Below, piece after piece: positions 1 to 11,183 of a DNA stretch of 64,000 nucleotides (positions are counted from its first letter, which is position 1; every line of letters begins with the position of its first letter). Origin of the DNA: Fibrobacteraceae bacterium. GTDB taxonomy: Bacteria > Fibrobacterota > Fibrobacteria > Fibrobacterales > Fibrobacteraceae. The stretch spans positions 13,514-77,513 of the forward strand of contig JAZQSE010000012.1 of the NCBI GenBank assembly GCA_045629945.1, read 5' to 3'. The notes beneath the pieces are model-generated. The model made no database searches and was not told the DNA's origin. It saw only the letters and a list, made by a program, of their open reading frames with translations. Both the position numbers and the translations under genes were made by a program.

Positions 1-1181
1 GTTTTGTCTCTCTGTTGATAAACCTCAACAAATTTCTTTGCTAACGGAATGTCGTTATGTATTTCTTTATGATATTCTATTTTATCATACCATTTTTCAA
101 ACACTGGCGTAAAATTATCAAAATTTGGATTTGCTCCTGGAATTACAATCCGATTATAACCAGCCTCTCCTAAAATCTCGGGCAATCCTTTTGCATTGTA
201 TTCATAAGTTGCAAAATATTTTTCGGTATGACTCCATATTCCACTTTGCATTCCAAGCAAGCCCTCTGTTGATGGAAAACCTACAGAATACGTATAAGGA
301 AAATAAATGCCGTTTTGAGCAAGGCTAATATAATTCGGTAATTTTTCTTGTGCAAACAAAGTCCGAATATCAAAGACCCAACCTCTCAAAGATTCTATCG
401 TTAAAAATATTATATCAGGTTTTTCATTTATATCTAAGAATTTAAAATCTGAAATATTGGAAGATTCTTCTTTAAGAAACGGATACTTTGCTTTTGGATT
501 TCCACCTAAAAACACGATTCCTTTTTCATAATCAATCGGCTTTGTCTTATGTGTTTTTGAATAAATTATTTCATTATAAATATGAGTGTAAAAAGGGCGT
601 ATTCTATCTCGTCTTTGTCTATCTTTAAGAGGCTTGTAAAAAGCATATTGCATCGCAAATGTTGAGAGCAATATTAAAATTAATACAGCTATAAGTTTGT
701 TTTTTCTGCTATGAAAATCAAATTTTATTTTCTTGATAACAAAATAAGACGCAAGCAAAGCAAAGAATAAAATTAATGCGTTTAGCACAAATGAAAGAAG
801 TCCGCCTTGAATGATATTAACAACTAAGTTCATATCACTAGCAGCACCGGCATAAGTTTTAAAATAGCCTATTGTGAAACGTCTGCTTAACCAACGAATA
901 AGTTCAGAATCAAAAATGGATAATAAAAGATAAACCCCAAAAATTGATGTTTGAATAGTTAAAAAAATTCGTTTATTTCGTTTTAAAATTAAACTGATAA
1001 TTAAAAACAAAATCGTAATAAACCCAAGTGCTGCAAAATCAGCAGCAATACTTCTTTTTATTAAAACAAAGATACCTGATTCTGTTAAAACCGAACCATT
1101 TGGCGTTTTTAACGCATACAATAAACACAAATTAAAAAAACGTGCAAGAAGGAAAACAACAAGTATTATCAAATATGGCAT
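1..1181 (-). CDS. Sulfatase-family membrane transferase (LtaS / phosphoglycerol- or phosphoethanolamine-transferase-like); C-terminal part lies beyond the window edge
   Basis: Absent from the ORF track because its stop lies left of the window. Hand translation of the minus strand from ATG 1181-1179 gives MPYLIILVVFLLARFFNLCLLY..., then about five hydrophobic helices. KPDIIFLTIESLRGW and GFPSTEGLLGMQSG blocks follow, typical of the alkaline-phosphatase/sulfatase superfamily. The frame stays open to position 1. The start overlaps the upstream stop by 13 nt. Confidence 0.65.
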   Translation of the reverse strand, partial: MPYLIILVVFLLARFFNLCLLYALKTPNGSVLTESGIFVLIKRSIAADFAALGFITILFLIISLILKRNKRIFLTIQTSIFGVYLLLSIFDSELIRWLSRRFTIGYFKTYAGAASDMNLVVNIIQGGLLSFVLNALILFFALLASYFVIKKIKFDFHSRKNKLIAVLILILLSTFAMQYAFYKPLKDRQRRDRIRPFYTHIYNEIIYSKTHKTKPIDYEKGIVFLGGNPKAKYPFLKEESSNISDFKFLDINEKPDIIFLTIESLRGWVFDIRTLFAQEKLPNYISLAQNGIYFPYTYSVGFPSTEGLLGMQSGIWSHTEKYFATYEYNAKGLPEILGEAGYNRIVIPGANPNFDNFTPVFEKWYDKIEYHKEIHNDIPLAKKFVEVYQQRDK

Positions 1182-2218
1182 AACTTCATTACTTTAGAAT
1201 TAAATTTTTTGATAAAATATGAAATACAAATGGCTCCCAAAACGCTAAAAACTGCAACTAAAAATTGATTATCTAATTGAACAGAATAAATTGATGATTT
1301 ATAACCCGGATTTACAAATTTATAAGTATTGTTTAATGGTAACATTATTAAATAATGACATAGATAAATTTCATAAGAAATCTTTCCACAAAAAGCAAGA
1401 ACTTTGCTTTTTAAATGTGTTCGATACATTACCAAAACTAATAAAGAAACAATACTTAACGATGCGATTTGTTGCATTATTGTTCTAGATACTTTCACAT
1501 AAAGCAACGCTATAGACAAAGTGGTCACAAAGGTTATCGCGAGAATAAAATATTTATCCTTAATTATTTTTTCAACAAATTCTTTCTTGTATGCAATCAA
1601 AATTCCTAATAAAAATGGCAAATTTGAACAATACCAAACAATACTACTTACATGAACAATTTCTTTACAATAAATAATGTATGCTATATTAAATACTGAA
1701 ATTAAACAAATCGCTTTTTTTACTGAGAAAAATTTAAAGAAAATATAAAATGCTAAATAAAAGACAGCAATTGTACAAACATACCACGCTACCGTTACAA
1801 TTCTACCACCTTCTAAATAAGGGAAAATAAAACTTAACAAGATTTCTTTAAATTCAAAAGTATGGCCTAAAATAAAAAACCATACTATATATAACAAGGT
1901 AGCCACCCAATACGGAATCATTAAACTCAAAAAACGTTTTTTCAAAAAACCTTTTAAATAATCTTTCTTTTTCAAAAATCCATACATTAATCCGTAACCA
2001 GAAAAGAAATAAAATATGGCAACAAACAAATACCCATGCCTATAAAAAACCGGGATTCCAGTATGACATAATACAACACTTATCGCAGCAAATCCTCGTA
2101 CAACCAAGGCATTATCTAAAGACAATGTTTCTTTATACAAATCTCTTTTAAAAAAATCAGCTTTCCAAAAAAACAAAATCAATAAAATTATAGGCAATGT
2201 ATAAATTAAGTTCTGCAT
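1169..2218 (-). CDS. Acyltransferase family 3 membrane protein (polysaccharide O-acyltransferase)
   Basis: 349 aa and about 10 hydrophobic helices. The N-terminal block ALVVRGFAAISVVLCHTG matches the conserved RG...A...V...H of acyltransferase_3 enzymes. It sits in a glycan locus. Confidence 0.75.
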   Translation of the reverse strand: MQNLIYTLPIILLILFFWKADFFKRDLYKETLSLDNALVVRGFAAISVVLCHTGIPVFYRHGYLFVAIFYFFSGYGLMYGFLKKKDYLKGFLKKRFLSLMIPYWVATLLYIVWFFILGHTFEFKEILLSFIFPYLEGGRIVTVAWYVCTIAVFYLAFYIFFKFFSVKKAICLISVFNIAYIIYCKEIVHVSSIVWYCSNLPFLLGILIAYKKEFVEKIIKDKYFILAITFVTTLSIALLYVKVSRTIMQQIASLSIVSLLVLVMYRTHLKSKVLAFCGKISYEIYLCHYLIMLPLNNTYKFVNPGYKSSIYSVQLDNQFLVAVFSVLGAICISYFIKKFNSKVMKLCHI

Positions 2219-3750
2219 AATTTCCTCTTCATTTTTCCCATAAATTCAAAGACAAATTTTTGTTCATTTTTATCTAAAACAAACAGATAAAATGTAAGTA
2301 TTTGTAAAACAGAAGAAACTACAAGCGTAAAAATCAAACTTCCCCAGTTTGTAAGATGAAATAAATCAGGTAAATTCCACAACACACATAAAATCAATAT
2401 GGTTAATGGAGCAAGTCTAAATGGGACAGCTTTACAAAATTCAGACGCATTCATCCCTGAGTATTTTGCTGCAAAATAAATGCGAGCAACAACCACTAAA
2501 AAATCCGAGAGAAAAATTCCTATAAAAACACTATAAGGTGAAGCGCCCATTTTCAACAATACCAATGCTATCGGAAAAACAATCAGATTTAAAATACTCA
2601 AAGTTATTCTATATACTTTTATTTTCCCGATTCCATCTATTAAAAAATTCAACCCTCGTGCTAGCATAATCATTAAATTTGTTCCTAAAACTAACCGACA
2701 AAAATGTGCTGCATAATCAGGGACATTTTTTAGCCATAACGAAAGAATAAAATCTGCTTCTATAATCAATGGTATTGAAAGTAACGCCATGAGCAAATAG
2801 GAAAATTTGCATACCGTTGTAGAAAGCTTTATACTTTTATCTATAAATCCATCACCAATATTTCGCATCACTTGCGGATTTGATGATTTAAAAATCATTT
2901 CAGAAAAGAACCCAATATTTTGCCGAACTTGTGTAGATACGCCATAAGCCGCATTTACACCTGTACCAAAAAACAGGTTCAGAACAACTGGAATACCTTC
3001 CCCTTTTGCAATATGACACACGCTTTCTACAGTAATCCAGCCCGAATAACAAGCCATTTCTTTTAGCAATTTAAAATCGACTACTCCTAATCTAATTTTT
3101 GTTTCTTTGTATTTATAATGACTATAAAGCCTTTTAAGTGTCCGGCAAGAAACCATCATCAAAGCCATTAACAAACCATAAGTCATTAATTTATCAACAG
3201 GAGTATAAAAAAGATAAATGGCGATTAAAAGTTTTAATACAGATTCCAAAACACTGAATAAAGAAAAAACAAGCATGTTTTCTTTTGCATTCATTATCGC
3301 ATCATAAGGTACTGCAATAACTGAAAAAAAGGTGCTTGCAACCATGCAATGAAAAACAAATTTAGCGGCAGCCAATCTTGAAGATTCAATATTTAAGAAT
3401 CCATCAAATAAAAACAAACCACAAATTTCTAAAACAATAACAAAAAGGATTCCGATTAAAACATGTAATATTAAAGACGTATTAAAAACTTTTCCTAATT
3501 GTTCTGTTCCCTTACCACGATTATAAGACAAGTATCGTTGCGTAGCTGTTGCCATTGCTTTATTTAAAAAAGATAAAGCACCAATAACACCGCCCACTAA
3601 TGCGTAAATACCAAAATCATTTGTTCCAAGAGCATTTAAAATTAATCGTGTTGAAAATAATGCAATAAAAATATTCAAAAACATTTTTGAATATAAAATT
3701 CCGGTATTTAAAATAATTCTTGAGGAATTTTGCATTATAAATTCATCCAA
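2206..3750 (-). CDS. wzx: Wzx-like MOP-superfamily polysaccharide flippase
   Basis: 514 aa, highly hydrophobic with about 12-14 helices, sitting between glycan transferases. An alternative start at ATG 3735 would form a TAATG stop/start overlap with the upstream gene. Confidence 0.7.
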   Translation of the reverse strand: MDEFIMQNSSRIILNTGILYSKMFLNIFIALFSTRLILNALGTNDFGIYALVGGVIGALSFLNKAMATATQRYLSYNRGKGTEQLGKVFNTSLILHVLIGILFVIVLEICGLFLFDGFLNIESSRLAAAKFVFHCMVASTFFSVIAVPYDAIMNAKENMLVFSLFSVLESVLKLLIAIYLFYTPVDKLMTYGLLMALMMVSCRTLKRLYSHYKYKETKIRLGVVDFKLLKEMACYSGWITVESVCHIAKGEGIPVVLNLFFGTGVNAAYGVSTQVRQNIGFFSEMIFKSSNPQVMRNIGDGFIDKSIKLSTTVCKFSYLLMALLSIPLIIEADFILSLWLKNVPDYAAHFCRLVLGTNLMIMLARGLNFLIDGIGKIKVYRITLSILNLIVFPIALVLLKMGASPYSVFIGIFLSDFLVVVARIYFAAKYSGMNASEFCKAVPFRLAPLTILILCVLWNLPDLFHLTNWGSLIFTLVVSSVLQILTFYLFVLDKNEQKFVFEFMGKMKRKLCRT

Positions 3751-4892
3751 GTTTCAATTTGCTTAGAAGCAATTTCTGTGGCATTACCCTTTTCCATCAG
3801 GCCAACATCTTTAAAAAATTTAACTAAATCATCTTCAAATTGCTTTTGATTAAACTTTAAAATATTCATTTCAAGTTCATCATTATTTTCTGCCACTGAA
3901 AAAGGTAGTTCTTTTAATTCAAAATAAAAATCTCTGTCATTTTTATAAGCTAAAATATCATTCGCAAATATAAAGCAAGGTCTCTTTAGCAAAGCATAAT
4001 CAAACATGCAACTTGAATAATCAGTAATCAATGCGCTAGCTTCTAAAAGTAATTTTTGCATATCCGGATAATTTGTTGCATCAATAACAGAACTATTAAA
4101 TTCAATGTTATGTTTTAATTTCATAGCCATTGGGTGCAAACGAACTAAAAGAACCCATTTTTCACTCGTTTTATTTTCTAACACTTCTAAAATTTTTTTT
4201 GCATCAATGTTATAGCATTCAACACTATCATCTGCTCTAAATGTCGGAGCATATAAAAGAATATTAATCTTTGAATTTAATTTATAATACTCATGAATTT
4301 CATTAACGTTTTGATTTTTAAAGAAAATATCATTCCTTGGCAACCCACTTTCTAACAAAGTCCCTTTGTAAAAAAATGCTCGCTTATAAAGTTCAGAAGC
4401 CCACTTACTGTTTGACAAAAAAACATCTATTAAAGCAGAATTCACACGAACTCTTTTCATATATGCAGCATCTAAACTTTCTTTTACATCGCCTTCAACT
4501 TTTTTTAAGCCAATCCCACCATGCCATGTTTCCATATAAAACTGATTTTTCCTCTTCCGAGTAAATGCAAACTTTGTATGACTATCCACCCAAACTTTTG
4601 CCGTAGCCAATTCGTAAATCATTTTCAATGAGTGCATCCCAAATACAACTTTACGCGTTCCTTCTGGTAATTCTGGATTGTATTTAGGATGACAAAGCCA
4701 AACTATATCTAAATCTGGGTATTTATTTTGTAAGTAATCAGATATACTTCTTGTACTATCACCACAACGTTTTCCACTAAAATTACAAAAGACTATTTTG
4801 TTCTTTTTTATAGGAAAAAGTCTAAAAAAATAAAACAGAAATATTTTGAACTTTTCCGATTTGCGCAAAGGCTTGAATATTTTTTTTAGCAT
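3735..4892 (-). CDS. TagB/TagF-family CDP-alditol (glycerol/ribitol) phosphotransferase
   Basis: 385 aa. Contains METWHGGIGLKK, LYAPTFR, LVRLHP and ITDYSSCMFDY blocks, characteristic of teichoic-acid-type glycerophosphotransferases. Confidence 0.8.
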   Translation of the reverse strand: MLKKIFKPLRKSEKFKIFLFYFFRLFPIKKNKIVFCNFSGKRCGDSTRSISDYLQNKYPDLDIVWLCHPKYNPELPEGTRKVVFGMHSLKMIYELATAKVWVDSHTKFAFTRKRKNQFYMETWHGGIGLKKVEGDVKESLDAAYMKRVRVNSALIDVFLSNSKWASELYKRAFFYKGTLLESGLPRNDIFFKNQNVNEIHEYYKLNSKINILLYAPTFRADDSVECYNIDAKKILEVLENKTSEKWVLLVRLHPMAMKLKHNIEFNSSVIDATNYPDMQKLLLEASALITDYSSCMFDYALLKRPCFIFANDILAYKNDRDFYFELKELPFSVAENNDELEMNILKFNQKQFEDDLVKFFKDVGLMEKGNATEIASKQIETWMNL

Positions 4893-6055
4893 AATTCAAC
4901 CCCTTTTAGTGCATCTTCAAAATTTTCACTAGAACAAAGCTTATGAATCAAAAGTGCACAACGTTCTGAAGCGTTCCCATCATCTTTTAACGTGTGCTTT
5001 GCAAAAAAATCATTTACTTTTTTCAAATAGGAAGGTTCTTCAAAATTTAAAATAGCTCTTTCTAACTCATCATTATTTAAAGCACAATAAAAAGGTAATT
5101 CATTTATTTCAAATAATAATCCACGTTCATTTATATAACTCTTAATATCTGGAGCAAACATAAATGCTGGTTTTCTGGAGATTAAGAAATCAAACATACA
5201 GCTTGAATAATCGGTAATAATAGAATCACTATAGGCTAACAATTCTTGAATATCAGGATAATCAGTAGCGTTCAATGTGTATTCATTGTAAAGATTTTTT
5301 CCTTCACAATGTTTTTTTGCCCAAGGATGCAATCGCAACAAACAAATCCAGTGACCGCCAAATTTATTTTCATACGCCTTTAAAATTCTTTTGATATCAA
5401 GCCCTGAATCCCATGCAGCAGTATCCTTTCTGAACGTTGGTGCGTAGAACAAGACCTTAGTTTCGCTTTTTAAATTAAAATATTTGCAAACCACATCTTC
5501 TTTTGGTTTAACAATCAAATCATTTCTAGGGTAACCAAACTCTGCTATTTTCCCACTATACCAAAAAGCACGTTTATAAACACCTGTACAAAAACCACTA
5601 TTTGAAATCATTAAATCAATTAATGGCGAATCATGCAACGCTTGTTTCACTGCTTGTGGACTAATTTTATCAACAGCATCTCTTTCACATTTTTTTACAC
5701 CTATCGCTCCATGCCAGGTTTGAATATAAAACTGACCCTTTCTTTTTTTTGCAAAAATACTTCTACGAACATTAGTAACCCAAATTTTTGCAGTTACTTG
5801 TTCATAAATAGATTGAATGGATTCAAATTTTACAAGTTTTATATAATCAGGAAACCCATTTTCAAATCCATTCTGAACTTGAAATACAATTTTATATTCC
5901 GGATACAATTCATGAAGTTTTTCTGCAATGTATTTTGGATTACACCCAAATGAGCGACCATTATAGTTATCAAAAAAAATCTTGTTTTTCTGAATAGTAA
6001 AAATCCTAAACACAAAGAAACACAAGCGTTTAATGAAAAGCTTTATACTTCTCAT
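4886..6055 (-). CDS. Second TagB/TagF-family CDP-alditol phosphotransferase (paralog of 3735-4892)
   Basis: Carries the same blocks: IQTWHGAIGVKK, FYAPTFR, LLRLHP, ITDYSSCMFDF. The track ORF starts at GTG 6073. I prefer ATG 6055, preceded by AAGGA, giving MRSIKLF.... Confidence 0.8.
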   Translation of the reverse strand: MRSIKLFIKRLCFFVFRIFTIQKNKIFFDNYNGRSFGCNPKYIAEKLHELYPEYKIVFQVQNGFENGFPDYIKLVKFESIQSIYEQVTAKIWVTNVRRSIFAKKRKGQFYIQTWHGAIGVKKCERDAVDKISPQAVKQALHDSPLIDLMISNSGFCTGVYKRAFWYSGKIAEFGYPRNDLIVKPKEDVVCKYFNLKSETKVLFYAPTFRKDTAAWDSGLDIKRILKAYENKFGGHWICLLRLHPWAKKHCEGKNLYNEYTLNATDYPDIQELLAYSDSIITDYSSCMFDFLISRKPAFMFAPDIKSYINERGLLFEINELPFYCALNNDELERAILNFEEPSYLKKVNDFFAKHTLKDDGNASERCALLIHKLCSSENFEDALKGVELC

Positions 6056-6057
6056 AT

Positions 6058-7128
6058 TTATTCCTTTGTGCACAACATACTTTGCATTAATCGTCTATAC
6101 GATTCTTCTAAACTAACCGTTGGTTTCCAGCCAAGATTTTGCATTTTTGCAGAAGACAAATGGAGTTCAGTATCTGGAGCATAGCCATAAGTCAACGAAC
6201 TTTCTGGGACATCAAAAACAACTTTAATGTTATTGCCGGCCAATTTTGAAGCAACCATTTGAGCCATATCTTTAATACGAATATTTGATTCTTCGTTTGA
6301 AATAGTATAAGCTTCGCCAGCACAACCTCTTGTCAAAAGAATCAAAATACCAATAATTGTATCTCTTGTATAACAATAATTTCCAAAAGACATTCCTGTC
6401 GTATGTAAAATTATATCTCGCTTTTCAAGGGCACTTTTGGCAAATTGAGCAAAGACACGGTTTTCCGAATAATGTATTCCTGCGCCAAAAGTTTGCGACA
6501 AGCGAGCTACTTTAATTGGCACATTATATTCACTTGCATAAGCAGCACATAAACATTCAGAAAGCCTTTTACTTTCTGGATAACAGCTTCGGACATTTTC
6601 TAGATCAATAAAACCTAAATCTTTTTCTTCTGCTTTTTTTTCAGACGCTTGAACAATACCAAAAGCTTCCATTGAAGATAAGTAAACAGCACCTTTGGCA
6701 TTCTTATTTTTTGCTAATTCTAAAAAATTCTGCGTCCCATTGATAGCCGTTTGAATAACTTCCACAGGTTTTGTTACAAATTCCTTTGACGCTGTTGCGC
6801 TAGCGGTATGAATTAAGTAATCAACTTCTTCTTTGACTTCAAAAACTTTTGTAACATCACCTTCAATAATTTTCAAATCAGAGCGATTAAAGATATCAGC
6901 AAAAACCACTTTTGCTTTTTCAACATTCCGAGCACATGCTAAAATTTTAATATTGCTTTTATAAATTCGATTCCGACAAGCAAGGGCTTTTATTATCTGA
7001 GAGCCAATTAAGCCTGTTGCTCCTGTAACTAAAATAGTGGAACCATCTAATAGATTCCAATCTACGTCTGAACTAGCAATTATTTCTAAATCTTCTTGCA
7101 ATATGTTATCTTTTTTAGCTTCTAGCAT
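6058..7128 (-). CDS. Extended SDR NAD(P)-dependent reductase/epimerase, likely the reductase of a CDP-alditol pathway
   Basis: Rossmann motif VTGATGLIGSQI and catalytic YPESK (YxxxK). It lies 2 nt from the cytidylyltransferase gene. Confidence 0.7.
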   Translation of the reverse strand: MLEAKKDNILQEDLEIIASSDVDWNLLDGSTILVTGATGLIGSQIIKALACRNRIYKSNIKILACARNVEKAKVVFADIFNRSDLKIIEGDVTKVFEVKEEVDYLIHTASATASKEFVTKPVEVIQTAINGTQNFLELAKNKNAKGAVYLSSMEAFGIVQASEKKAEEKDLGFIDLENVRSCYPESKRLSECLCAAYASEYNVPIKVARLSQTFGAGIHYSENRVFAQFAKSALEKRDIILHTTGMSFGNYCYTRDTIIGILILLTRGCAGEAYTISNEESNIRIKDMAQMVASKLAGNNIKVVFDVPESSLTYGYAPDTELHLSSAKMQNLGWKPTVSLEESYRRLMQSMLCTKE

Positions 7129-7130
7129 AA

Positions 7131-7856
7131 TTAAAATCCAAAAATTTGAGAATTTTCGCGGATTTCATAGATTGCTCTAAACAAATAAAAATCCATTGGC
7201 GTTGTAATTTTAATATTCTCTACAGGTCCATCAACTGTCGTTAAATCAAAACCATAATGTTGCATTAAACTAGCAGAATCAATCATATTAGTATTTCCAT
7301 CAGCAATAGCTTTTATATGAACTTCAAATATATCTTTCATGAAAAAACTTTGCGGAGCTCGAGCCAGTTTGCAATCTTTTCTGTCCATAATCTTAGTTAT
7401 GGAATTTTTAGAATCTGTAGAAACTATTGTTTCTATCGCCGGAGCTACGGTAATTGCAGAACCATTTTCTTTAACGCATAAAATATTATCTGTAATCAAC
7501 TGTTCAGAAATTAATGGACGGACTCCATCATGAATCAAAACTATTGAATCTTTATATTCATCATTATCATGTATCGCTTTTAATCCATTATAAATAGATG
7601 CTTGACCAGTTTCTCCACCAGGAACAACAAACTTCACTTTTTTAAAATGATACCTTTCCAACAATTCTTTAAGATATTCTATCCAGTCTTCGACACAAAC
7701 AATACATATTGCATCTATTTCTCTATGCCGTTCAAAATATTCTAATGTATGAATGATAATAGCTCTGCCGTTTAATTCCAAAAACTGCTTTGGTCGTTGT
7801 TTAGAATTCATTCGAGAGCCGACACCACCAGCAAATATCAAACCAACATTTTTCAT
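7131..7856 (-). CDS. IspD/TarI-family cytidylyltransferase (CDP-ribitol / CDP-alditol synthase type)
   Basis: 241 aa. Has N-terminal GLIFAGGVGSRM...PKQF and VLIHDGVRP blocks typical of IspD/TarI nucleotidyltransferases. Confidence 0.8.
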   Translation of the reverse strand: MKNVGLIFAGGVGSRMNSKQRPKQFLELNGRAIIIHTLEYFERHREIDAICIVCVEDWIEYLKELLERYHFKKVKFVVPGGETGQASIYNGLKAIHDNDEYKDSIVLIHDGVRPLISEQLITDNILCVKENGSAITVAPAIETIVSTDSKNSITKIMDRKDCKLARAPQSFFMKDIFEVHIKAIADGNTNMIDSASLMQHYGFDLTTVDGPVENIKITTPMDFYLFRAIYEIRENSQIFGF

Positions 7857-7869
7857 ACAATTCTACCTA

Positions 7870-9495
7870 CTAAAATTCCAACAATAATCCGCCATGGACA
7901 TAAATATGGTTACCGCGTTTCCGCAATTTTTCATAACCAGCAAGAATCAGAATAGAAGAGCGGTCTCCATTTTTGATATCTACGCCTCCGCCAAGTTTCC
8001 AAATCAAACGTTTATCGTTTCCAAATGCGTAGCCATAATCACCAGTAAAAACCGGTAAAACGGTTGAACCAAAAGGTAAACGTAACCAAATAGATGCGGT
8101 CACCGGCACATAATATTTACCATAAATATCCTGATAACCGCTACCGATTCCAAAGAAAACCATTTGGTCAAAACGATACCATAAATGCCCTGTTACATCT
8201 AAATTAAACAAAAGGTCTTCTCTGTCTTCTAAAGAAGAAAGTGTCCCTACTTCTGCAGAAAAGCCGACATCGGCAAACGAATCGGTTGGTGTCAAAAATG
8301 AAAACGCAAAAACAAGCCCTAACACAGACAAGATAGTCGAAGAAAATGTTTTTTCTTCACTACGAGCTTCACGGGCCCAACCGCCACCAGTCTGTTTACA
8401 AAACGACAAGAAAAATCCTTTTAACATAGCCATATTCATAGATAAAAAATAATAAGCCTGTGGAATAATTTTAAGTAACGCCAATAAAAAGAACAAGAGA
8501 ATAGCACCAAAAACAGCGATATAAAATGGTGAAGCAGAAAAAGCAAGCACCGCTGAAGACAAAATGCACAAAATTCCTAAATGAGGCGAGAACCAACGCA
8601 ACAATTTATGTGAAAAGAATAAATACGCTAAAAGCGGACGAAAGGGATTTAGCAAAGGTAAATAAGAGAAGAGATAATTGAAATTAGCTCGCCCGATTCT
8701 CACTTTTCTACGGTATTCCCCAGAAGCTTCTTTTGAAGTGACTTCGGTACCAATAGCTCCATTTACAAATGTGCAATAATAACCTTTTTGCAAAATTTTC
8801 ACTGTTACAAAAAAGTCATCCATAACGCTTTTTTTCACAGGGAGCGCCGTATAAAGTTCTCGACGAATGGCATACAAAGCACCATTACCGCCAATTAAAC
8901 GATCAAGCATTCCTTCAAATTTTTTGATTTCAGATTCTAAATCCCAGTAAGCACTTTCGCCTTTACCTAAAGGCGTTCCACTCAAATCAGAAAGAATTAA
9001 ATGGCCACACACGCATCCAATTTTGGAATCATTAAATGGTGCAACCAACTGACGCACCACATTAGGGAAAAACATTGTATTTGCATCACAGAATAAAAGA
9101 ATTTCTCCCGATGCTTTTTGTTGCAACCGATTTAACATTGCCGCTTTACCGGCATTTTTTTCTGCGCGAATTAAAGTGATGCCGCGCTCTGAAAAACGCT
9201 CTACAATTTCAGCCGTTTTATCTGCCGAGCCATCGTCTCCTATTAAAATTTCCAAGAGCTCTTTTGGGTAATCGATTTCTAAAAGATTTTCAATTTTTCT
9301 TTCAATTATACTTTCTTCATTATAGGCTGAAATCAGTATAGACACTTTGGGCAAAGCGACTTTCTTTTCCGAGGATTTTCTTTTAAAAATTTCACTGAGC
9401 CAGGGTAATGATAAAGGGAAAAGTATATAGCAATGCACTAAAAGCACAAGTGCACTCCAAAAAACAATCGTCGCAACCAGCAAATATGTTTCCAT
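7870..9495 (-). CDS. Membrane GT2 synthase-type glycosyltransferase fused to a C-terminal OMP-like 8-strand beta-barrel segment
   Basis: GT2 blocks: ISAYNEE, DDGSADKT, FCDAN, GGNGALYAIRRELY, and RRKVRIGR resembling the Q/RxxRW of processive synthases. Four to five TM helices follow, then a signal-peptide-like STILSVLGLVFAFSFLTPTDSFA. The last 133 aa have an alternating amphipathic pattern and end GGLLLEF. Confidence 0.75.
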   Translation of the reverse strand: METYLLVATIVFWSALVLLVHCYILFPLSLPWLSEIFKRKSSEKKVALPKVSILISAYNEESIIERKIENLLEIDYPKELLEILIGDDGSADKTAEIVERFSERGITLIRAEKNAGKAAMLNRLQQKASGEILLFCDANTMFFPNVVRQLVAPFNDSKIGCVCGHLILSDLSGTPLGKGESAYWDLESEIKKFEGMLDRLIGGNGALYAIRRELYTALPVKKSVMDDFFVTVKILQKGYYCTFVNGAIGTEVTSKEASGEYRRKVRIGRANFNYLFSYLPLLNPFRPLLAYLFFSHKLLRWFSPHLGILCILSSAVLAFSASPFYIAVFGAILLFFLLALLKIIPQAYYFLSMNMAMLKGFFLSFCKQTGGGWAREARSEEKTFSSTILSVLGLVFAFSFLTPTDSFADVGFSAEVGTLSSLEDREDLLFNLDVTGHLWYRFDQMVFFGIGSGYQDIYGKYYVPVTASIWLRLPFGSTVLPVFTGDYGYAFGNDKRLIWKLGGGVDIKNGDRSSILILAGYEKLRKRGNHIYVHGGLLLEF

Positions 9496-9956
9496 TAAAA
9501 CACCCCTTTCTTTTTAGAGTTTTTCCGGAAGCCTTCATAAAGAATTTTATCTAAAAAACGCAACATTCCCTCTTTTCCCATAGCACCACTCAATGAAAGT
9601 AGCGATACTCCAGAATAATCTAGAATAACATAGCTGGGGATTCCTTGTAATTTTAAAACGCTTGTGTAACATTCTTTTATAGGAACATTCTTGCTTTCAC
9701 AAAAAACAGAATCCATAGAATCAACATTCAAACGAACGGCATAAAAATTGTCTTTTATTTTTTTCTGCACTTCTTTGTCTGAAAAAACATTGGCCTGCAT
9801 TACTTGACAAGGCACACACCAATCGGCATAGTATTCAATAAATAGTGGGCGTTTATCTTTTTTAGCTAGCGTTAAAGCCTCTTGCATAGGTTTCCAGAAA
9901 GTGTCTGCAAAAGAAAATCCAAGAAACAAAAATATTCCTAAAAAAAATGCTTTCAT
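9495..9956 (-). CDS. Periplasmic thioredoxin-fold protein (CxxC)
   Basis: Signal peptide MKAFFLGIFLFLGFSFA and active-site-like WCVPCQ. Its stop overlaps the GT2 ATG as TAATG. Confidence 0.7.
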   Translation of the reverse strand: MKAFFLGIFLFLGFSFADTFWKPMQEALTLAKKDKRPLFIEYYADWCVPCQVMQANVFSDKEVQKKIKDNFYAVRLNVDSMDSVFCESKNVPIKECYTSVLKLQGIPSYVILDYSGVSLLSLSGAMGKEGMLRFLDKILYEGFRKNSKKKGVF

Positions 9957-10285
9957 CTAGACTCCTTGCTTTTTGTTTTTTGCAAAGTGTCTACATAAGA
10001 GAGCACCTCTGTCTGAAACGCATTCCACATTGAATAATTTTTCTGCAATTTTTCAAATTCTTCTGAAAACGATTCAATAGTAAATCCATATTTTTCAAGT
10101 ATGGATTTATTTAAAAGGTTTGCTTCAGGACGCGTTCCATAAATTTCAGTTATCGCACGCATTTCAACATAAGCTTTACTAAAATTGGGAGAAATATTTC
10201 CTGAGTGTTCTTGACAAGCGCACAGAACAAGAATCAAAAAAGATATCAGAATCCCTGTTTTAATTTTCACTTTCGCTGAGAGCAT
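9953..10285 (-). CDS. Small lipoprotein, unknown function
   Basis: From ATG 10285 the sequence is MLSAKVKIKTGILISFLILVLCAC, a basic n-region plus a lipobox-like LVLC/AC. It overlaps the ftsY 3' end. Confidence 0.5.
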   Translation of the reverse strand: MLSAKVKIKTGILISFLILVLCACQEHSGNISPNFSKAYVEMRAITEIYGTRPEANLLNKSILEKYGFTIESFSEEFEKLQKNYSMWNAFQTEVLSYVDTLQKTKSKESR

Positions 10286-11183
10286 TTTCAAAAAGCCCTT
10301 CCACAAATTCTTGCTTATTAAAAGGCACTAATTGGTCAATTCTTTCACCAACGCCAATCCAGCGAATGGGTATCTGTAAAGAACCTGCTATAGACAACAC
10401 AGAACCACCACGCGCAGTACCATCTAATTTGGTTACCACAATTCCAGTCAAAGGAAAACTCTTATGGAAAATTTTGGTTTGATTTATCGCATTTTGCCCA
10501 GTGGTTCCATCAATAACAAGCCAAATATCATGTGGATAGTTTTCATCGTGTTTCCGCATAACGCGAACCACTTTAGAAAGTTCATCCATCAAATAATCTT
10601 TATTATGTAAACGACCAGCAGTGTCTACAAGAACAACATCACAACCGCGAGCTTTCGCAGCAGCACAGGCGTCAAAGGCGACGGCCGCAGGGTCCGAGCC
10701 TTCCTGGTGCCGGACAAATTCGGCACCAGAACGTTCCGCCCAGGTTTCTAATTGTTCAATGGCGGCTGCGCGGAACGTATCGCCTGCCGCAATCATTACC
10801 TTTTTACCTTCAGAAGCAAAACGCGAAGCCAGCTTGCCAATAGTCGTTGTTTTACCAGCCCCATTTACGCCAATTACAAGAATCACATGCGGAGAACCTT
10901 TAAGTTCAAACTGCGGCGGATCCTGCAATAAACGTTCAGCTTCATTACGCATAATGGACAAAACTTCTTTTTCTGTCAACGATTTTCCAAGAGCATTTTC
11001 ACGCAGAGCATCTGTCAACAAGAAAGCCGCTTCCACACCGACATCTGCTTTAATTAAATGTTCTTCTAAATCTTCTAAAGTTTCATCAGTGATTTTTCCG
11101 ACACCAACAATACCTTTCAACTCGCCAAGCAAAGCTTCACGAGTTTTTTGCAAACCAGATTTTATTGCTGAAAAAAGACCCAT
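10260..11183 (-). CDS. ftsY: Signal recognition particle receptor FtsY
   Basis: GVNGAGKTTTIGKLA, DTAGR and TKLDGTARGG motifs. I prefer the start MGLFSAIKSGLQKT at 11183, which forms a TAATG overlap with the clpP stop. Confidence 0.9.
   Translation of the reverse strand: MGLFSAIKSGLQKTREALLGELKGIVGVGKITDETLEDLEEHLIKADVGVEAAFLLTDALRENALGKSLTEKEVLSIMRNEAERLLQDPPQFELKGSPHVILVIGVNGAGKTTTIGKLASRFASEGKKVMIAAGDTFRAAAIEQLETWAERSGAEFVRHQEGSDPAAVAFDACAAAKARGCDVVLVDTAGRLHNKDYLMDELSKVVRVMRKHDENYPHDIWLVIDGTTGQNAINQTKIFHKSFPLTGIVVTKLDGTARGGSVLSIAGSLQIPIRWIGVGERIDQLVPFNKQEFVEGLFENALSESEN

Follow-up and report, generated by a model that had tools for sequence, protein, structure and literature searches.

A membrane glycosyltransferase joined in frame to an internal signal-peptide-like segment and a predicted outer-membrane-type β-barrel in Fibrobacteraceae

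We analysed a 64,000-nucleotide stretch of DNA (the window) on contig JAZQSE010000012.1 of a Fibrobacteraceae bacterium, the source genome of which is a metagenome-assembled genome from yak caecum that is 99.9% complete. On the minus strand, one open reading frame (ORF) of 541 amino acids plus stop (7870..9495), open throughout, joins a family 2 glycosyltransferase (GT2) to an internal signal-peptide-like segment, STILSVLGLVFAFSFLTPTDSFA (residues 386-408; 8272..8340, minus strand), and to a 133-residue domain predicted to form an 8-strand β-barrel of the outer-membrane type (residues 409-541; 7873..8271, minus strand). The fusion is real, conserved and repeatedly evolved, a fresh variant of the internal signal peptide polyprotein theme with an undescribed barrel family. 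Its product is probably a natural two-membrane polyprotein, which would be cut by signal peptidase I after A408, releasing the barrel for insertion into the outer membrane by the β-barrel assembly machinery (BAM). A sequence-only reading of the window had already recognised the GT2, a signal-peptide-like segment with an AxA-type site and a barrel tail in one ORF, and this structural reading holds, with the positions given for the segment (8272-8340), the tail (7873-8271) and two conceivable internal starts (TTG 8331 and GTG 8325) all being correct. The same reading had left three origins of the barrel side by side, namely cleavage and export, a separate internal start and an artefact merging two genes. 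Among these, cleavage and export is now the best supported, though indirectly, by an AxA-type site kept in 60/60 fused clusters, secreted split homologues, the presence of signal peptidase I and BamA and the lack of a second barrel copy, whereas an internal start is poorly supported.

The fusion is not confined to the window. A search with the whole protein returned about 60 clusters of 533-555 amino acids covering 96-100% of the query at 54-99% identity, and wherever the organism was named it was Fibrobacter or a member of the Fibrobacteraceae. One of the fused clusters, P0014, bears the NCBI name Fibrobacter sp. UWP2. The JGI protein cluster P0002, with 79 member sequences, is 99% identical over 541 amino acids, and a second genome of the same genus (G149) carries the same ORF at 99% identity with no stop. 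The search also returned many proteins of 383-390 amino acids that cover just the first 70% of the query. In our census of 151 species-level Fibrobacteraceae genomes the GT2 was present in 144, and in 41 genomes it was fused through a junction without a stop; these comprise all genomes of the window's own genus (g1, 5/5) and of genera g7 (19/19) and g5 (3/3), nine genomes of the large genus g6 and single genomes in four further genera. In 13 genomes, all of g6, the two parts are in frame with 1-3 stops between them (for example, REARSDE-stop-FEYI-stop-SCRMKKIF), and the one-stop forms illustrate how small the step between split and fused states is. The GT2 match ends near residue 380-418 in about 90 genomes, where the barrel, if present, is a separate match. 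Orthologues are therefore a mixture of fused and split forms, and not consistently split. A sequencing artefact had been named as a possibility, to which an assembly error and a recently broken or merged pseudogene without biological meaning may be added, and the metagenomic origin of the window speaks for such a view. However, the stop-free fusion recurs in 41 genomes at the species level, which stem from various hosts and were built with various assemblers (the single-contig genome G140 is one of them), as well as in 60 protein clusters at 54-99% identity. Both halves are strongly conserved, with 67% mean column identity and many invariant residues in the barrel. The artefact is thus excluded for all practical purposes.

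Outside the Fibrobacteraceae the pair is encoded by two genes. In other families of the class Fibrobacteria, 19/20 loci have a separate GT2 ORF of 41-54% identity immediately ahead of the barrel, and within the Fibrobacteraceae the barrel gene lies, bar a few loci, from a 4 nt overlap to 259 nt downstream of the GT2. The pair is found in nearly all Fibrobacter genomes, beside clpP-ftsY. Among 296 genomes of the phylum the barrel family was detected in 188, all from the eight families that make up the class (f1-f8), and in none of families f9-f21. Since the GT2-barrel pair is class-wide and split outside the Fibrobacteraceae, the two-gene module is old and the split state is probably ancestral, the fusion probably being derived. 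On the tree of the GT2 domain the label fused or split changes six times, with at least two changes forced by well-supported branches, and the approximately unbiased test rejects a single bipartition (delta lnL 96.9, p = 0.0003). Hence fusion or re-splitting has occurred repeatedly. When 1.84 billion representatives were searched exhaustively with the profile, only 54 members came up, so the family is small and restricted to its lineage. As a separate observation, genomes of genus g4 (G004-G017) carry a GT2 orthologue at about 50% identity in 10/14 cases and a detectable barrel in 0/14; this natural loss of the partner could help to infer the role of the barrel. In a high-GC member of another family of the class (locus L108, G285:C139:24500-29000) a barrel homologue lies downstream of a 199-amino-acid ORF and not of a GT2; by eye this ORF looks YqgE/AlgH-like, and the barrel there may be a paralogue that departed from the module. 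A 757-amino-acid open frame around a barrel homologue in G285 was dismissed as a spurious long frame of a high-GC genome, having no GT2 upstream.

The split relatives show what the tail of the fused protein derives from. They generally consist of a GT2 of 383 amino acids followed by a separate gene of 150-157 amino acids, and in two split loci a GT2 of 383-385 amino acids precedes a gene of 152-155 amino acids located 29 or 119 nt downstream. The stop codon of the split forms lies 3-6 codons past the conserved GGGW-REAR motif (residues 370-378; 8362..8388, minus strand), where the GT2 of split relatives terminates and which is probably cytoplasmic. The standalone secreted proteins P0122 and P0123 are 45-57% identical to the tail. 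Standalone homologues start with MKK or MKR, continue with a hydrophobic core and end their signal sequence with ANA before F, as expected of a cleavable-type Sec signal peptide; that of the standalone barrel is MKRILTAILFTLVFTALPANA, followed by FTMD. In a 27-protein alignment, n-, h- and c-regions are seen in every standalone member and the mature part is strongly conserved. The same element stands inside the fused protein, where the segment homologous to these N-terminal signal peptides consists of the hydrophobic core STILSVLGLVFAFSFLT followed by PTDSFA. Between it and the GT2 is the short acidic linker SEEKTFS (residues 379-385; 8341..8361, minus strand), predicted with low AlphaFold2 confidence, which corresponds to the former stop codon and intergenic spacer. 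Current records describe the fused gene as 'glycosyltransferase family 2 protein' and the split barrel as 'hypothetical protein'.

Regarding the fold, the tail had no Pfam match at E <= 1, the standalone barrel P0123 had no NCBIfam match at E <= 0.1 and the family profile gave no meaningful sequence match in the PDB, so the tail was identified via fold comparison alone. AlphaFold2 modelled the tail from the alignment of 27 sequences as one helix, the core of the signal peptide, and eight strands, at a mean predicted local distance difference test score (pLDDT) of 92.2. The top 11 Foldseek matches in the PDB are all 8-strand transmembrane barrels; the designed barrel 6x9z comes first and the natural ones are NspA (TM-score 0.66), the OmpA transmembrane domain, the OprF N-domain, OmpX, OmpW and Ail. 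The strands alternate a hydrophobic face with a polar or glycine face, the difference in hydrophobicity between the faces being 2.51 as compared with a mean of 1.21 ± 0.32 and a maximum of 2.47 in 1000 shuffles, and the loops are all short (2-9 residues). We therefore regard the tail as a predicted outer-membrane-type 8-strand barrel of the OmpA/OmpX type. The eight amphipathic strands proposed earlier are borne out by the model, the fold comparison and the shuffle test. As to the C-terminal aromatic signature of outer-membrane proteins that had also been proposed, GGLLLEF closes the window protein and LLLEF many of its relatives, while the last residue of many others is L, I, W, Y or M. The polar positions that are invariant in the barrel family include H437, D443, Q444 and D506; in tail numbering the residues are H52, D58, Q59, R87, D121, K123, S129 and E155. 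Most of the invariant polar residues (H, D-Q-M, R-L-P-x-G, D-I-K-N-G, S and the penultimate E) lie in or next to three turns. If the barrel takes the usual orientation of outer-membrane proteins, these three turns would face the periplasm, and the residues could constitute a structural salt-bridge network or a functional site on that side. In a further motif of the family, GD-x-SS, the residue between Asp and Ser-Ser varies (R, H, Y). A PagL-like lipid A deacylase was considered and rejected, PagL being just rank 22 in the fold search and a conserved His-x-Ser being absent.

The junction is the most informative part of the fused protein. The predicted signal peptidase I site follows A408 (SFA before D409). 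Though the segment is otherwise highly variable, an uncharged core and a small-x-small site are kept in 60/60 fused clusters, with Ala at position -1 in 55 and Ser in 5, and Ala or Ser at position -3 in 48. Positions -4 and -6 often hold Pro, matching the pattern of the standalone signal peptides, and the Lys of the n-region is retained in many fused forms (...VAKLLPF..., ...VTKALPF...). The hydrophobic core, the small residues at -3 and -1 and the absence of Pro at +1 are all features of signal peptidase I substrates. The automatically derived length of the hydrophobic core was unreliable, with Lys or Glu often at -4/-5, and was not used. The start codon of the barrel gene fared differently from the cleavage site. 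At the former start position, which directly precedes the Lys of the n-region, just 2/18 fused species junctions have ATG or GTG, and in 4/21 fused junctions there is no ATG, GTG or TTG between REAR and the c-region. Selection has thus kept the cleavage site and not the start codon, as the AxA-type site is found in 60/60 clusters but the old start in 2/18 junctions. As a side observation, 8/18 fused junctions carry, immediately ahead of the n-region Lys, ATG or a codon one step away from it (ACG, GTG, ATC, ATA), which is suggestive and may be a relic of the lost start; the observation refers to fused junctions in L013, L037, L041, L074, L075, L078, L079, L081, L082 and L085.

These data bear directly on the possibility that an internal start yields the barrel and its signal peptide as a translation product of their own, whether or not the full-length protein is made as well. 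In 7/21 fused species junctions a GTG or ATG does lie 1-4 codons before the Lys, as in SSMKVLPWL... (L078) or TVVKVLP with GTG (L075), some of these junctions have a purine-rich stretch upstream, and the window itself contains TTG 8331 and GTG 8325. However, such candidates are not conserved, as the counts at the relic position and of junctions lacking any canonical start indicate. The two codons of the window had been called unconvincing starts, and we agree: both lie inside the hydrophobic core with no Shine-Dalgarno-like sequence, they would yield a truncated signal peptide without an n-region, and chance alone would place Leu and Val codons in such a core. We thus consider internal initiation very unlikely as the general source of the barrel. 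In addition, the source genome encodes signal peptidase I and BamA, both scoring above the family cut-offs, and its sole barrel copy is the fused one. Consequently, if the function of the barrel is conserved, the organism must obtain it from the fusion.

Whether the internal segment could act as a signal peptide depends on the topology of the GT2. Clear hydropathy cores, averaged over the alignment and coinciding with AlphaFold2 helices, are at residues 7-28, 305-322, 324-344 and 386-402. The first belongs to the N-terminal transmembrane helix (residues about 4-28; 9412..9486, minus strand; helix 2-36 in the AlphaFold2 model), directly after which KRKSSEKK stands on the cytoplasmic side. The second and third are part of the C-terminal membrane region defined by hydropathy and AlphaFold2 (residues 287-363; 8407..8637, minus strand), where they form two clearly hydrophobic helices (303-320 and 323-340). 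These are flanked by amphipathic helices (287-301 and 345-363), which in the hydropathy average are only moderately hydrophobic (283-303 and 345-365). With the N-terminus outside, the catalytic domain inside and either neither or both of the amphipathic helices spanning the membrane, the end of the GT2 would be cytoplasmic, and a K/R-rich invariant GGGW-R--R stands at this end, beside the putative cytoplasmic side. Hydropathy parity and charge thus suggest a cytoplasmic GT2 C-terminus, from which segment 386-402 would cross the membrane N-in/C-out, the orientation of a signal peptide. The full-length AlphaFold2 model has a pLDDT of 86.9 and falls below 50 only at residues 371-374, 379-387 and 400-406; the low-scoring segments are the linker and the c-region, which flank a 14-residue helix (387-400).

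We propose that the GT2 stop codon was lost in several Fibrobacteraceae lineages, which would have merged the GT2 and barrel genes of the old Fibrobacteria module; the short spacer would have become the acidic linker, the start of the barrel gene would have decayed and the signal peptide would have been kept inside the protein. In the present-day protein, the GT2 would insert co-translationally with its N-terminus outside and its catalytic domain and GGGW-REAR end in the cytoplasm. Segment 386-402 would then enter the Sec translocon N-in/C-out, exactly like its N-terminal counterpart in the standalone barrel, and signal peptidase I would cut between SFA and D (A408 and D409). Such a cut would leave the semi-tryptic peptide DVGFSAEVGTLSSLEDR, or LTADASVGVV... 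as its counterpart in g7-type proteins. Periplasmic chaperones would carry the freed 133-residue barrel to BAM for insertion into the outer membrane, and the GT2 would be left with one extra C-terminal helix. If this is true, the fusion enforces 1:1 co-synthesis of both partners. The solid ground of this model is that the tail is homologous to separately encoded secreted proteins and is predicted to fold as a barrel, that the fusion is conserved and arose repeatedly, and that the AxA-type site was retained while the start was lost; the cleavage, the outer-membrane insertion, the side of the membrane on which the GT2 ends and whatever the pair does are inferred.

The same architecture could also be read as an uncleaved tether, in which the last transmembrane helix is permanent and the β domain stays on the GT2 at the periplasmic face of the inner membrane as a module of the enzyme. 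Partner domains fused through uncleaved signal anchors are common in transporters, and the arrangement would resemble the substrate-binding domains fused to ABC permeases; moreover, the invariant polar residues at or near the turns that putatively face the periplasm would offer a possible interaction surface. Nevertheless, the homologous standalone proteins have a cleavable signal peptide as their only membrane-targeting element, the strands have a lipid-facing hydrophobic side and the top fold matches are all outer-membrane barrels. A plain anchor needs neither a small-x-Ala site nor Pro at -4/-6, yet these are kept across the 60/60 fused clusters. The helix is just about 14 residues long and fewer than 10 residues separate it from strand 1, far too few for the domain to reach the outer membrane uncut. 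Furthermore, since fused and split states interconvert repeatedly, the barrel presumably reaches the same place in both. We therefore judge a permanent tether to be unlikely and retain signal peptidase cleavage followed by export of the barrel as the probable course.

Several points weigh against cleavage and export. The cut is a prediction, and both its site and the topology rest on simple rules, the site heuristic being off by two residues in some sequences. The n-region of the window protein is weak, with one Lys (K382) among three Glu. The many relatives that end with Leu, Ile, Trp, Tyr or Met instead of Phe would present a weaker signal to BAM. The GTG or ATG codons shortly before the n-region Lys mean that internal initiation may contribute in some lineages. 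Finally, the model would fail if exactly one of the two amphipathic helices of the GT2 spanned the membrane, as the C-terminus of the GT2 would then lie in the periplasm.

The GT2 half provides the context for any function of the pair. Its cytoplasmic GT-A catalytic domain (residues 49-266; 8698..9351, minus strand) is delimited by Pfam, invariant columns and the Foldseek match to PcManGT. Residues 49-337 match Pfam GT2 families above their cut-offs (PF00535 at 88.2 bits against 23.3, PF13641 at 66 against 27 and PF13632 at 38.4 against 27), and the motifs GDDGS (86-90), DAN (137-139) and MDD (225-227) are present. Where processive synthases carry QxxRW, an invariant RRKVRIGRA (262-270) is found. 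The protein had previously been discussed in terms of synthase-dependent exopolysaccharide systems, whose outer-membrane component the barrel would be; our data do not support this framing. The scores are far under the equivalog cut-offs (76 bits against 422 for TIGR03937 PgaC, 55 against 550 for NodC and 29 against 699 for CelA), QxxRW is absent and the closest fold is that of the minimal, non-channel PcManGT (6yv7; TM-score 0.75), followed by BcsA and HAS (E = 1e-13 to 1e-15). The ceramide glucosyltransferase aligns to residues 18-340 of the split orthologue P0071, almost its full length (E = 1.7e-7). Having just two clearly hydrophobic C-terminal transmembrane helices, the GT2 has too few membrane helices for a monomeric glycan channel. 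Judged by these similarities, we read it as a putative small membrane enzyme acting on a lipid or lipid-linked acceptor, or as a maker of short glycans, and not as a demonstrated exopolysaccharide synthase. A role of the barrel as a polysaccharide conduit was likewise considered and is unlikely given its size, as an 8-strand barrel is too narrow for the passage of a polysaccharide.

Probably the pair produces or handles a glycolipid or glycan of the envelope, and its product is likely to be a conserved component of the envelope. A more far-reaching proposal, which we offer as speculation and hold to be rather doubtful, is that the pair is a minimal two-component envelope glycan or glycolipid system of Fibrobacteria in which the GT2 product would strictly depend on the barrel, single or oligomeric, to receive, anchor or export it. 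Repeated fusion would then reflect selection for coupled synthesis at the same site, and an incomplete cut could even bridge both membranes at contact sites.

The genes around the fusion are in part conserved. The ATG of the fused ORF overlaps the stop of the upstream gene (TAATG, 9493-9497), which encodes a translationally coupled, secreted thioredoxin-like protein with a CVPC motif (9495..9956, minus strand; Pfam Thioredoxin_7 and DsbH). The order of the thioredoxin-like gene adjoining the GT2 is kept in Fibrobacter loci L001-L004. Between ftsY and the thioredoxin-like gene lies a gene for a 117-amino-acid protein with a lipoprotein-like N-terminus (...ILVLCAC...; 9953-10306, minus strand), for which no Pfam or NCBIfam match was found; a gene of 120-128 amino acids occupies its position in the same Fibrobacter loci. 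Downstream of the fused gene, on the same strand, the window continues with a low-GC (26-34%) glycan locus (1-7856, of which 4886-7856 was checked) encoding an IspD/TarI-type cytidylyltransferase, a short-chain dehydrogenase/reductase-type epimerase/reductase and a TagF-type CDP-glycerol glycerophosphotransferase. Other Fibrobacter genomes have a GtrA-like gene, an epimerase or a mechanosensitive channel after the barrel. Thus the glycan locus is a variable insertion beside the conserved GT2-barrel module.

Normally, an outer-membrane barrel is synthesised as a free precursor that begins with its signal peptide. Here it is the tail of a multi-spanning enzyme of the inner membrane, in an arrangement that has been successful in evolution. 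The fusion therefore allows testing whether a barrel emerging behind several transmembrane helices can be dealt with by signal peptidase I and the chaperone/BAM pathway, and the natural series of fused, in-frame one-stop and fully split forms enables a comparison of co-translational coupling across two membranes. Furthermore, an undescribed 8-strand barrel family is tied to one GT2 across a class that includes main cellulose degraders of the rumen and hindgut. In an incomplete literature search we found no description of an outer-membrane β-barrel that forms the C-terminal portion of a multi-spanning enzyme of the inner membrane, and nothing relevant on an inner-/outer-membrane fusion or on this Fibrobacter gene; the fusion may yet have been described. 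Polyproteins with internal signal peptides offer a precedent, and here as there the halves are adjacent genes in relatives, the second of which starts with a signal peptide. One such polyprotein is FbcH, the cytochrome b-c1 precursor of Bradyrhizobium japonicum, in which, as reportedly described by Thony-Meyer et al. in 1989/1991, a polytopic inner-membrane protein is followed by an internal signal peptide that signal peptidase cleaves, releasing a second, periplasm-facing protein. Both products of FbcH stay in the inner-membrane bc1 complex, whereas here the second product is predicted to go to the outer membrane.

A documented parallel is AcsAB of Gluconacetobacter/Komagataeibacter, a BcsA-BcsB fusion in which AcsA and AcsB form one polypeptide that is proteolytically processed (PMC4877109). 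As in the protein described here, where the fold is a prediction, a membrane GT2 of cellulose-synthase-like fold shares one ORF with a secreted partner that is a separate, signal-peptide-bearing gene in other bacteria. AcsAB is processed, whereas the cleavage we propose is deduced from the junction. The systems also differ in that BcsB is periplasmic and anchored in the inner membrane and is not an outer-membrane β-barrel, and in that BcsA is large, processive, gated by cyclic di-GMP and channel-forming, while the GT2 of the fusion is a minimal protein of 380 amino acids without QxxRW. The GT2 half is nearer to PcManGT, a mannosyltransferase of minimal cellulose-synthase-like fold, to which it is similar over about 380 columns at the TM-score given above and at an identity of about 20%. 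With both PcManGT and ceramide glucosyltransferase (GT21) it shares an N-terminal transmembrane helix, a GT-A domain and few C-terminal membrane helices, but neither of them has a barrel partner. The tail, in turn, has the same predicted fold as the OmpA transmembrane domain, OmpX, NspA, Ail, OmpW and PagL (Foldseek probability 1.00, TM-score 0.52-0.66) and has in common with these small barrels the dyad-repeat amphipathicity and, in the window protein and many but not all relatives, the C-terminal Phe, and its split homologues carry an N-terminal Sec signal peptide. There is no detectable sequence similarity to them, and the loops of the tail are nearer to those of designed minimal barrels. 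Finally, unlike the known small outer-membrane barrels, this family is confined to the class Fibrobacteria, where it is nearly always encoded right after one GT2.

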